DNA of 64,000 nt from contig JADFZJ010000018.1 in the NCBI GenBank assembly GCA_015232555.1, positions 4,934 to 68,933 of the forward strand. Direction: 5' to 3'. Below are positions 36,986 through 44,055 of the stretch, piece after piece. The notes under the pieces are model-generated. The model made no database searches. It was not told the origin of the DNA and was given only the letters and a program-made list of their open reading frames with translations. The translations under genes were made by a program, and so were the position numbers. The stretch is from Desulfamplus sp. (GTDB lineage Bacteria > Desulfobacterota > Desulfobacteria > Desulfobacterales > Desulfobacteraceae). Positions within the stretch are counted from its first letter, which is position 1. Every line of letters starts with the position of its first letter.

Positions 36986-37087
36986 AAGAAGAATTGCCAA
37001 ATACAAGCCTTAAATAATGGATATATATGAATATTTTTGCTGAAATAAACTGCATTTGTTAGCGAATAAAAATTAAGGAGGTAAATA

Positions 37088-38022
37088 TTGACAACGACCA
37101 AGGCGTTCTTTTCTCAAACGGACAATATCAGTAAAATCATTGCCGATGAAATATTAGCAGCAAAAAAGTATGTTTTATTAGCAATGTACACTTTAAGAGC
37201 CTGTTTAAAAATTATTTGTAACATGTAAAAATCTTTCCTCACGAACCAATATAGAGCCAAAAGAGCCTTTTGTGACTCAAGCAGATTCTACACAGTAATC
37301 CATTAAGACGGACAAGGTTGCAATATAAAGACTTCATTTGAGCAAACATGTTAAAAATTGTGATTACTTGCAAAGCAAACTGAGGGTTACAATTAATTTT
37401 TAAACAGGCTCTAAGAGACCTCCAAATGATTGAGGCTTTAAAAAAAGCTAAAGCAAATGAAATAGAAATTCTTCTTATTTTTGACCAAAGACAGATGCAC
37501 AATAATCAAAGCATATTCTTTACCCTTAATAATGCAGGATTAACTTTCAGAACATTGAACATTGAAAATGCCAGTATGCATCATAAATTTATTGTGATTG
37601 ATGATATTACTACAATTACAGGATCATTTAATTGGACTCACAGTGCACAGAAAAAGAATTATGAGAATATCGTGATAATCAAAGACTCAGTAGTAACAGA
37701 ACAGTATAAAAACGAATTTGATAGAATACGGCAGAGAATTACTTCAAACCCTATTGATGATATTTTAAAACAAAAAGAGCTTTTAGAAAAAAGATTACAA
37801 GAAGGAATAAAAGAAAAGGAACGAGAAGAGAAATTAAGAAAAGAACGAGAAGAACGATTAAGAAAAGAACGAGAAGAACAGGATAAAAAACATGATTTTG
37901 AATTAGCTATGTTTGAAATAGCAAGTGGGCAAGGTTATAATAATGCAATCCGAAGAATAAAGAATGCAGCGTCATTAGGGCATAGAGAAGCTCAACTTTG
38001 GCTATCAAAACACTATAAGTAA
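37088..38022 (+). pseudogene. PLD-family (HKD) nuclease-like gene with coiled coil and Sel1-like tail, disrupted by a MITE
   Basis: TTG at 37088 after AAGGAGG gives MTTTKAFFSQTDNISKIIADEILAAKKYVLLAMYTLR. Removing the MITE and one TAA continues in frame as DLQMIEALKK...MHHKFIVIDD...TGSFNWT. Confidence 0.85.
37197..37411. mobile_element. 215-bp MITE with 26-bp terminal inverted repeats and TAA target duplication
   Basis: Left end GAGCCTGTTTAAAAATTATTTGTAAC and right end GTTACAATTAATTTTTAAACAGGCTC match at 25/26; TAA at 37194-37196 and 37412-37414; no coding capacity. Confidence 0.92.
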
Positions 38023-40740: not shown

Positions 40741-43700
40741 ATGCCAAAACGTACAGATATAAAAAAGATTCTTATTATTGGAGCAGGTCCGATTATTATT
40801 AGTCAAGCCTGCGAATTTGATTATTCAGGCACTCAAGCGTGCAAGGCTTTGAAAGAGGAGGGTTATGAGGTAGTTTTAATCAACTCAAACCCTGCTACTA
40901 TAATGACTGACCCTGATACAGCCGACAGAGTATATATTGAGCCTGTAACACCTGAAACCGTTGAAAAGGTAATTGCCAAAGAGCGACCAGATGCACTTCT
41001 GCCGACACTTGGGGGACAGACAGGTCTTAATACTGCGGTTGAGGTGGCAAAAAGGGGAATTCTTGAACGATACAATGTTGAGATGATAGGAGCTTCTGTT
41101 GAAGCTATCAAAAAAGCAGAAGATAGAGAGCTTTTCCGCGATGCCATGAACCGGATCAATTTACGTATTCCAAGAAGTGGTTTTGCTAAAAACATGCACG
41201 AAGTTGATAAGGTTGCCGAAGAGATTGGCTTTCCAATAATTGTTCGCCCAAGTTTTACACTTGGTGGAACAGGCGGCGGTGTTGCCTACAATCCTGAAGA
41301 GCTTGCTGTTCTTTCTAAAAAAGGGCTTGATGCAAGTTTCATAGGTCAGGTGATGCTTGAGGAGTCGGTTCTTGGCTGGAAAGAGTATGAACTTGAGGTT
41401 ATGCGGGATCACGCGGGCAATGTTGTTATAATCTGTTCGATTGAAAATATTGATCCTATGGGAGTTCACACAGGAGACAGCATAACAGTTGCCCCTGCCC
41501 AAACCCTTTCTGATAAAGAGTATCAGATGCTCAGAGATGCCTCAATTGCAATCATGCAGGAGATTGGCGTTGATACTGGAGGCTCTAATGTTCAGTTTGC
41601 CATAAATCCTTCTAATGGAGAGATGATCATTGTTGAAATGAACCCAAGAGTATCCAGAAGCTCTGCACTTGCATCTAAAGCTACTGGCTTTCCAATTGCA
41701 AAGATTGCGGCAAAATTGGCAGTTGGATTTACTCTTGATGAGATTAAAAATGATATAACAGGTGAAACTCTTGCCTGTTTTGAACCATCTATTGATTACT
41801 GCGTAGTAAAAATTCCACGCTGGACATTTGAGAAATTTCCTGAAACTGATGATATTTTGACCACTGCCATGAAATCGGTTGGTGAAACAATGTCAATTGG
41901 CAGAACATTTAAAGAGGCTCTGCAAAAAGGTTTACGTTCTCTTGAAATCGGAAGATTTGGATTTGGTGCAGATGGCAAGGACCCTGTATCTGGCTCGGTT
42001 TCAAGAACTGAACTTGAATATAGACTTGCAACACCAAATTCCCAGAGGATTTTTTATATCAAATATGCTCTTGAGAATGGCATGTCAATTGAGGCAATAA
42101 ACGAACTTACAGGTATTGATCCCTGGTTTCTCTACCAGATGAAGCAGCTTGTGGAATTTCAAAAAACCGTAGAGACGCATGGACGTGCATCTCTACAATC
42201 TAATCGTGCGTCTTCACAATCTAATCTTGAATCTTTGCAATCTAATCTTACGTATCCACAATCTATAATCTCTTATGAGACCATGGAAAAGGCAAAAAGA
42301 TGGGGATTTTCAGATAGACAGCTTGCACATCTTACAGGTTTTTCAGAAGAGCAGATTGAAAGTTACAGAAAAAAACTTGGTATTGTGCCAGTCTATAAAC
42401 TTGTTGATACCTGTGCCGCAGAGTTCAGAGCTGCCACGCCATATTATTACTCAACATACGAAAAAGAGTGCGAGGCAAGAATATCAGACCGTAAAAAAGT
42501 GATGATTTTAGGTGGTGGTCCAAACCGAATCGGACAGGGAATTGAGTTTGACTACTGCTGTGTTCAAGCATCTTTTGCCTTGAGAGAAGAGGGTGTTGAG
42601 AGCATCATGGTCAACAGCAATCCTGAAACCGTCAGTACAGATTATGATACATCAGATAAACTCTACTTTGAACCTCTGACCCGTGAAGATGTTCTGCACA
42701 TTGTTGAGAAAGAAAAACCTGACGGCGTTATTGTGCAGTTTGGCGGGCAGACTCCGTTGAACCTTGCAACAGTACTTAAAAAAGCAGGGGTTCCAATTAT
42801 CGGTACAAGCCCTGAAAGCATTGATATGGCGGAAAACCGTGATCTGTTTCAGGCAATGCTCAGAAAACTTGATATTGCCCAGCCTGCCAACGGAATTGCG
42901 ACAAACTTTCCAGAAGCTCAAAAAGTTGCCCGTGAAATTGGCTATCCAGTCATGGTTAGACCCTCGTTTGTTTTAGGAGGGCGTGCCATGAAGATAGTGT
43001 ATGAGCCAAAAGAGCTTGAGGAGTATTTTAACCTTGCAATATCAGCATCCCCTGATCACCCTGTATTGATTGACCAATTTTTAGAAGATGCGTTTGAACT
43101 TGATGTTGATGCAATTTCCGATGGTAACCGCACCATAATAGGTGGAATGATGGAGCACATTGAGGAGGCTGGAATTCATTCAGGAGATTCTGCCTGTGTT
43201 CTGCCTCCCTACAGCATACCTGCCCATTTGATTCAGGAGATGGCTGATGCTACCCGGGCACTTGCAAAAGAGCTGAAAGTTATAGGGCTTATGAATATCC
43301 AATTTGCCATTATGGATGGAAAACTTTACGTGATTGAGGTCAATCCAAGAGCATCAAGAACAGTTCCATTTGTCAGTAAGGCTACAGGTGTTCCTTTGGC
43401 AAAACTTGCCACAAAGGTTATGCTTGGAAAAACTCTTGATGAACTGGGATTGACAAAAGAGGTGATACCTCTCCACTATTCGGTAAAAGAGGCTGTCATG
43501 CCTTTTGACAGGTTTGACAAGGTTGATCCTGTGCTTGGACCTGAAATGAAATCAACTGGAGAAGTTATGGGCATTGACATGGAGCTTGGGGCAGCCTTTG
43601 CAAAAGCCCAGCTTGGTGCAGGTCAAAATCTTCCAACCGAAGGGACTGTCTTTATAAGTGTTCAAGATAGAGATAAAATGTCCGCCCTTCCAGTTGCAAA

Positions 43701-44055
43701 AGAGTTCTATCAGATGGGATTCAAGCTCATTGCCACACGGGGAACTGCGATGTTTCTTCAAGATAATGCAATTCCTGCAAAAGTTGTGGAAAAGGTATCT
43801 ACAGGCAGACCTCATGTAGTTGATGCTGTTAAAAATAATGAGATTCAGCTTATTTTAAACACAGGGGCAAGCAGCCAGACAAAGATGGACGGCTACGAAA
43901 TTAGAAGGTCTGCAATAAGATATAAAATCCCTTATGCAACAACAACCGATGGTGCAAAGGCAATTTGCAGGGCAATCAAGGCATTGAAAAAAGAGCCTTT
44001 AACTGTAAAGTCGATTCAAGAGTATCATGCACCGTTTAATTCAAAAGTAGGTTAA
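40741..44055 (+). CDS. carB: carbamoyl-phosphate synthase large subunit
   Basis: [30 protein letters not shown], two ATP-grasp halves and an MGS domain. Confidence 0.98.
42169..42267 (+). repeat. 28-bp REP-like palindrome plus four 21-bp tandem units, in frame within carB
   Basis: GTAGAGACGCATGGACGTGCATCTCTAC (42169-42196), then units at 42184, 42205, 42226 and 42247; encodes [32 protein letters not shown]. Confidence 0.85.

Follow-up and report, generated by a model that had tools for sequence, protein, structure and literature searches.

Eukaryotic Tourist MITEs (PIF/Harbinger) have transposases related to those of IS5, duplicate a TWA target (TTA/TAA) on insertion, and carry G(A/G)GCCTGTTT termini. 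The element described in the present study is reminiscent of them in its TWA duplication and in the type of its terminus, but it is a bacterial element whose partner is assigned to the IS5 family. It also resembles the prokaryotic MITEs that are mobilised by IS5-family elements, because it is small and non-coding, has terminal inverted repeats matched by those of an IS of its own genome, makes a short target duplication, exists in near-identical copies, and splits a gene, whereas it differs from simple deletion MITEs in that its body shares only 26-34 terminal bases with its IS. Prokaryotic MITEs are known to inactivate genes, as exemplified by MITEAba12 in hns and by elements in the mcy genes of Anabaena and in avrA and hopX1 (PMC10969869). 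Because insertional inactivation by MITEs is so well documented (PMC10969869), the case reported here belongs to a known kind; it is a clean but ordinary inactivation of a gene by a mobile element and involves no new kind of element, architecture, or mechanism.

The product of the split gene can be compared with Nuc of pKM101 (1BYR), NucT of Helicobacter pylori (6EHI), and Zucchini/MitoPLD (4GGJ, 4GEL), which are homodimeric single-HKD endonucleases. As in these enzymes, each chain carries a single HxK(x)4D(x)6GSxN motif, and the catalytic domain is ~145 amino acids long. The protein of the present study lacks a signal peptide, in contrast with Nuc and NucT, which are exported, and lacks a mitochondrial anchor, in contrast with Zucchini, and it differs from all three in having at its C-terminus a K/E-rich helix whose length varies. 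It is also like DrmC of the DISARM system and DpdK of the Dpd system, in that these are its best PADLOC matches and that its gene lies among defence and TA genes. However, no drmA/B/D/E or dpd genes adjoin it, either in the window or on related contigs, and its neighbours are instead a type II R-M pair, PIN, HEPN-MNT, and carA/carB.

The window, which is the whole stretch of 64,000 nucleotides analysed in this study, comes from a Desulfamplus sp. genome assembly (GCA_015232555.1, contig JADFZJ010000018.1) of 3.82 Mb in 106 contigs with a G+C content of 37.8%. The proteins that cluster with its CarA and with a neighbouring binding protein likewise bear the name Desulfamplus sp. The features of the locus are collected in Table 1. 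The element inserted in the gene is a MITE: it contains no transposase gene, is bounded by terminal inverted repeats and a target duplication, has dispersed copies in the genome, and is matched at its ends by an IS. Its inverted ends were located by direct reading, by a pattern search, and by a repeat finder, and the arms found in these ways agree, which confirms the 26-bp inverted repeats of the original prediction; its TAA duplication was confirmed by direct reading. When the 26-mer of the MITE end was searched for with up to 3 mismatches across 100 shuffles of the window, 0 matches were obtained. The stop codon that terminates the 5' part of the gene, which had been placed inside the inverted repeat, lies instead a few nucleotides past it. 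The ends of the element would, if present as RNA, pair to form a long stem (z = -5.3). Promoter-like matches near the element were not above the shuffled expectation, and none pointed outward to the 3' ORF; the idea of an outward promoter in the MITE was rejected because those matches stayed within what shuffled sequences give.

Table 1. Features of the interrupted PLD gene and its surroundings (positions are those of the window).
Feature	Position	Strand	Remarks
Type II REase remnant	37027..37047	+	First 7 codons, MNIFAEI (21 bp); alignment with L031 and L030
Shine-Dalgarno sequence AAGGAGG	37075..37081	+	6 nt upstream of the TTG start of the PLD gene
PLD gene, 5' part, codons 1-36	37088..37196	+	Encodes the first strand, first helix, and second strand of the PLD fold
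Target copy TAA, left	37194..37196	.	Direct reading
MITE	37197..37411	+	215 bp, without coding capacity or an ORF of its own
Left terminal inverted repeat GAGCCTGTTTAAAAATTATTTGTAAC	37197..37222	+	Equals both ends of the 911-bp IS G000:C104:1052-1962
Premature stop TAA in the frame of the PLD gene	37226..37228	+	Element positions 30-32; 4 nt beyond the left inverted repeat
Right terminal inverted repeat	37386..37411	-	1 mismatch against the left repeat (25/26 complementary)
Target copy TAA, right	37412..37414	.	Direct reading
PLD gene, 3' part	37415..38022	+	Catalytic PLD half, charged helix, and orphan tail
HKD catalytic block H-H-K-F-I-V-I-D...G-S-F-N-W-T...N-Y-E-N	37579..37668	+	Invariant columns in 50 homologs
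24-bp tandem repeat, 2.9 copies	37811..37880	+	K/E/R-rich helix with KEREEKLR units; length and frame vary in orthologs
Orphan 44-aa tail ("Sel1-like")	37888..38019	+	Two short helices predicted; absent in intact orthologs

The genome-wide search for other copies that the original prediction had proposed yielded about 12 copies or fragments of the MITE, namely 7 full-length copies, including that of the window, which are 95-100% identical, and 5 fragments. Three full-length copies are identical to one another, with those at G000:C84:33257-33471 and G000:C67:17952-18166 showing 100% identity to the window copy, and the four others are ~95% identical. Because the window copy is identical to two others, the insertion can be regarded as recent, in agreement with what had been proposed. 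When the flanks of 28 element ends were compared, T was found at position -3 and A at position -1 in all 28, W at position -2 in 27, and a pyrimidine (Y) at position -4 in 25, and these counts define the target as Y-TWA-R, of which TWA is duplicated. Three of the 5 fragments are situated at contig ends, and all three have TWA beside the element end, as do the 2 other fragments. Matching triplets are present on both sides of 5 of the 7 full-length copies and also of the partner IS, and the remaining 2 full-length copies have TAA on one flank and TTA on the other. The unmatched TAA/TTA flanks of one of them, the C67 copy, are explained by its nesting within a truncated partner IS at IS position 664 (G000:C67:17952-18526), the far side of which is unrelated DNA. 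Only the window copy among the 7 full-length MITEs splits a long ORF, and there is therefore no pattern of genic targeting. In 60 genomes of the same family, the body of the MITE was not found, and only ends or IS relatives were present there. A second type of element, with the related end GAGCCTGTTTAAATATTATTTCTGAC and TAA flanks, was noticed at G000:C25:34718 and G000:C84:56409, and may represent a further family of MITEs or ISs that relies on a similar transposase.

The partner IS on contig C104 is 911 bp long, has 26-bp ends identical to those of the MITE, and is flanked by TTA on both sides. It encodes two overlapping frames, with matches to PF13340 DUF4096 (6e-18) and PF01609 DDE_Tnp_1 (2e-21), and both frames match NF033580 transpos_IS5_3, with scores of 56 and 108 bits relative to a cut-off of 110 that is set for the whole protein. 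By these sequence comparisons the partner is assigned to the IS5 family, and the assignment of the MITE to an IS5-related element with a TWA target, which had been suggested from the terminal bases, is upheld by the identical 26-bp ends and by TWA at 27 of 28 ends. What the MITE and the IS have in common is limited to the terminal 26-34 nt, and the MITE was for this reason rejected as an internal-deletion derivative of the IS. Contigs C57, C66, C85, and C106 end in further copies of the IS, and the C104 copy is the only one fully assembled. The first frame of that copy has lost 1 nt after ...CQWREL, as called against an 86%-identical congener IS and the family profile. With this deletion and an A7 run, two frame changes would be needed to read the C104 transposase, of which the change at the A7 run may be programmed. 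Because of the deletion in C104, a working transposase would have to come from the copies at the contig ends. The IS has presumably mobilised the MITE in trans. The congener IS (L115:482-1384) itself has an in-frame stop and another frameshift.

The whole split gene spans 37088-38022, with the element placed after codon 36. The Shine-Dalgarno sequence is AAGGAGG also in L030 and L031 and AAGGAGA in L033, which are contigs of relatives. With the element in place, the list of open reading frames contains a 5' ORF of 46 aa (37088-37228) with a TTG start and a 3' ORF of 198 aa that runs from ATG 37426 to 38022 and has no Shine-Dalgarno sequence. Because only the 46-aa peptide uses the ribosome-binding site of the gene, and because the 198-aa remainder lacks both such a site and core elements of the fold, we infer that the split gene is a null allele. 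Removal of the element together with one TAA, which was performed by a script, gives an open frame of 238 codons with no internal stop that reads ...AMYTL-R-DLQMIEAL... across the junction, and retention of both TAA copies gives 239 aa with one extra Ile. The frame restoration and the junction of the original prediction therefore stand, and its length of 239 aa is corrected to 238 aa for the gene with one TAA. The wording that the element "cleanly inactivates" the gene is appropriate with respect to the open restored frame, but not with respect to codon 37, which encodes Arg, a residue never seen there in 47 homologs.

PF13091 PLDc_2 matches the 3' ORF with an E value of 4e-21 over profile positions 25-131 of 132, and as the match starts at position 25, the N-terminal part of the domain is missing from this ORF. 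The predicted single HKD motif (MHHKFIVID...GSFNWT...EN) is present, and M51, H52, K54, F55, G66, S67, N69, and E80, which are invariant in 50 homologs, are all intact in the window. When the intact ortholog was compared with PDB entries by sequence, mouse Zucchini/MitoPLD (4ggj, 5e-15), Nuc (1byr, 2e-12), and NucT (6ehi, 1e-9) were matched, and Foldseek with the AlphaFold model of the 198-aa ORF gave 4ggk (2e-5), 4ggj (5e-5), 1byr (1.5e-4), and 6ehi (5e-3), with 4gem also among the top matches. In the AF2 model of the ortholog P0003 (pLDDT 91), a strand (residues 3-8), a helix (14-23), and a second strand (28-33) precede the insertion point and a helix (39-50) follows it. With this layout, the insertion cuts the catalytic half off from three elements of the core. 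The gene codes for a small cytoplasmic single-HKD member of the PLD superfamily, nearest to Zucchini, Nuc, and NucT, and the sequence and fold matches agree with its earlier comparison to Nuc. The intact protein is likely a homodimeric phosphodiesterase that acts on nucleic acid, and judging from its genomic context and a generic PLD similarity, it possibly has a role in defence or in conflict between mobile elements.

The best PADLOC match of the intact ortholog is DrmC (1e-16), which reflects general PLD similarity. The NCBIfam scores are 58 bits for NucT, 46 for DrmC NF038319, and 29 for DpdK, relative to cut-offs of 211, 133, and 100, respectively. Membership in DISARM or Dpd was rejected because the scores are under the cut-offs and because no partner genes adjoin. 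Distant PLD homologs are larger and heterogeneous, and 147 ORFs neighbouring them were listed. A 240-aa homolog with 44% identity has a helical tail of its own (L131:6001-12019), and just downstream of it lie a 1720-aa SF1-type helicase with a DUF559/MTES_1575 nuclease-like domain and, nearby, an IS91-type transposase.

Intact orthologs with the empty site, which the original prediction had called for, were found on three metagenome contigs of close relatives. The proteins (P0002, P0003, and P0004) are 187-194 aa long and 88-93% identical, and they open with MTTTKAFFSQTDNISKIIADEILAAK, having the same first 36 residues as the 5' ORF of the window. On either side of the element, the DNA of the orthologs can be aligned to the window. 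At the empty site, the sequence of L030 is ACACTT-TAA-CAGACC, in which TAA occurs once, precisely where the element sits in the window, and that of L031 and L033 is ACAC(T/C)T-TAT-CAGAC(A/C); the insertion is seen in one assembly and the empty site in related lineages, whose carA has 95% nucleotide identity, rather than in the same strain or population. Close orthologs of the gene came solely from metagenome contigs. A search of 60 related genomes found no such protein, and the best match to it among 185,579 species genomes shows 45% identity. At the first base after the duplication, the window has G where the orthologs have C, and codon 37 is consequently Arg, not Thr or Ser. The residue at this codon in 47 homologs is T in 29, N in 9, S in 5, C in 2, and G in 1, and R in none. 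Because this G makes the site fit Y-TWA-R, it may predate the insertion. E85N, V86I, and W142R are further lineage-specific replacements in the window allele, and position 142 is occupied by Lys in 11 of the 47 homologs.

The C-terminal region was described in the original prediction as a coiled coil followed by a Sel1-like tail, which together with the PLD domain would make an unusual architecture. In the model of the 198-aa ORF, a long helix (residues 110-167) and two short helices (171-183 and 187-196) appear with high confidence. The three intact orthologs, however, end within or just after a variable K/E-rich repeat run and do not have the tail. No match to Sel1 (PF08238), a repeat that usually comes in arrays of several units, was obtained from Pfam at E<=10 with either the tail alone or the last 98 aa, and the sole Pfam match for the tail, TPR_27 at 0.015, is below the cut-off. 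By eye, one AA..G...AQ..L...Y-like motif can be discerned, and the predicted helices of the tail would be compatible with one TPR/Sel1-like hairpin, which is not evidence of a domain. A search of 5.8 billion proteins with the tail returned the window's own protein alone, and nothing similar to the tail was found in its own genome by tblastn and blastn. The Sel1 domain was rejected on the grounds that the tail matches no profile, has no relatives, and is absent from the orthologs. The proposed PLD-coiled coil-Sel1 architecture does not hold up, because the tail is missing in orthologs and the charged helix is a variable tandem repeat, which make it a lineage-specific extension rather than a conserved design. 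In L030, more K/E-coding sequence continues past the stop codon (L030:1965-2120), which means that the C-terminus varies, through slippage or indels, between alleles that are themselves intact.

In related contigs, the islet between carA and carB begins with carA, a type II REase (365 aa), a D12 adenine methyltransferase, the PLD gene, and a small ORF, and continues with HEPN, MNT, carB, an N6_N4 methyltransferase, and a HinfI-like REase. PADLOC recognised the R-M pair of these contigs as REase_II PDLC03572 (2e-73) and MTase_II (4e-105). From the window, ~2.05 kb holding this pair is gone, and a deletion scar remains after carA (37027-37068). The REase of L030 has an in-frame internal deletion that reduces it to 108 aa; the methyltransferase and PLD genes of this contig remain intact. 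In the window, the stretch from the PLD gene to HEPN-MNT also contains a PIN module along with further small ORFs. The composition of the locus supports its interpretation as a variable defence/TA islet that is decaying in the lineage of the window. The possibility that the PLD protein serves as the nuclease of the adjoining R-M system is not favoured, because relatives have a separate 365-aa type II REase and also because the PLD gene is intact where the REase is internally deleted. At the far side of the islet, carB (40741-44055) contains an in-frame 21-bp tandem repeat of 3.9 copies (42184-42265), which encodes SLQSN-like units and adds ~21 residues to CarB, 1104 aa in the window as compared with 1078 aa in related contigs.

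The explanation that we consider very probable is that a recent insertion of an IS5-family MITE, mobilised in trans, at a Y-TWA-R site turned a nuclease gene of the Nuc/Zucchini type, located in a decaying islet, into a null allele. The transposase of the IS, composed of a putative DUF4096 DNA-binding part and a DDE catalytic part, would recognise the ends common to the IS and the MITE. Insertion at Y-TWA-R would duplicate the central TWA, in this case at T-TAA-G inside codons 36-37. The insertion divides the PLD fold, leaving its first strand, helix, and strand on one side and the catalytic HKD half on the other. The element brings in a TAA stop after 30 nt, so that only the 46-aa peptide could be produced from the ribosome-binding site of the gene. 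The setting of this recent hit is a variable carA-carB islet, whose adjoining type II R-M pair has shrunk to 7 codons.

The main alternative, which partly overlaps this explanation and which we regard as unlikely, is that the gene was already dead or dispensable and that the insertion was a neutral hit in a decaying islet. Arg37, at a position occupied by T, N, S, C, or G in the 47 homologs, the W142R replacement, and the lineage-specific pair E85N and V86I are what such prior decay might leave behind, and the G that creates Arg37 also suits the target, suggesting that it preceded the insertion. The C-terminus points in the same direction, being unlike that of all intact orthologs in its repeat expansion and different downstream sequence, and so does the reduction of the R-M pair to 7 codons, for which the L030 REase represents an intermediate stage. 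On the other hand, the restored 238 codons contain no stop or frameshift, the catalytic motif is intact, and 3-4 lineage-specific replacements in 160 codons are not above the 7 of the intact L033 ortholog. W142R may be tolerated, considering the Lys at this position in some homologs. Given Arg37 and W142R, the gene may nevertheless have been impaired before the insertion.

The other readings deserve much less weight than insertion of a trans-mobilised MITE into a gene that it inactivates. The 3-bp duplication means that excision, with or without a footprint, keeps the frame, and the two possible products, 238 and 239 aa long, are both read from open frames. As the element family has been active recently and the 198-aa ORF is open and modelled with high confidence, one might imagine a reversible or regulatory switch, or that the element drives expression of a new and shorter protein from the 198-aa remainder. 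Such a role is quite improbable, because ATG 37426 has no ribosome-binding site, promoter-like matches do not exceed those in shuffles and none faces the 3' ORF, the product would lack the first two strands and the first helix of the core sheet, and the single genic copy among 7 gives no pattern of genic targeting. A more elaborate idea, which we also consider improbable, is that the gene, when intact, codes for a Nuc/Zucchini-type nuclease that acts by itself in defence or addiction, with a K/E-rich helix and tail diversified by tandem-repeat slippage, for which the MITE became a frame-preserving, reversible off-switch after the loss of the R-M pair. An assembly artefact, in which the repeat was mis-threaded into a contig of this metagenome-assembled genome, might be suspected because the draft consists of 106 contigs, with the repeat present in identical form at other places and contigs broken at other copies of it. 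A mis-join, however, would not give ends this exact, nor would it perfectly duplicate 3 bp that occur once in the orthologs, at a target that suits the preference of the family, and the contig runs on for tens of kb on either side; an artefact is thus extremely unlikely.

For annotation, the findings mean that the two ORFs are best labelled as one pseudogene, the 215-bp repeat as a MITE, and the contig breaks as IS copies. Three stages of islet decay can be recognised among close relatives: the R-M pair is intact in the first, its REase is internally deleted in the second, and in the third, the R-M pair is gone and the PLD gene is split. The locus is thereby a modest illustration of how defence islets turn over, and a well-documented natural knock-out that comes with an active pair of a MITE and an IS5-family element in a Desulfamplus-like sulfate reducer.
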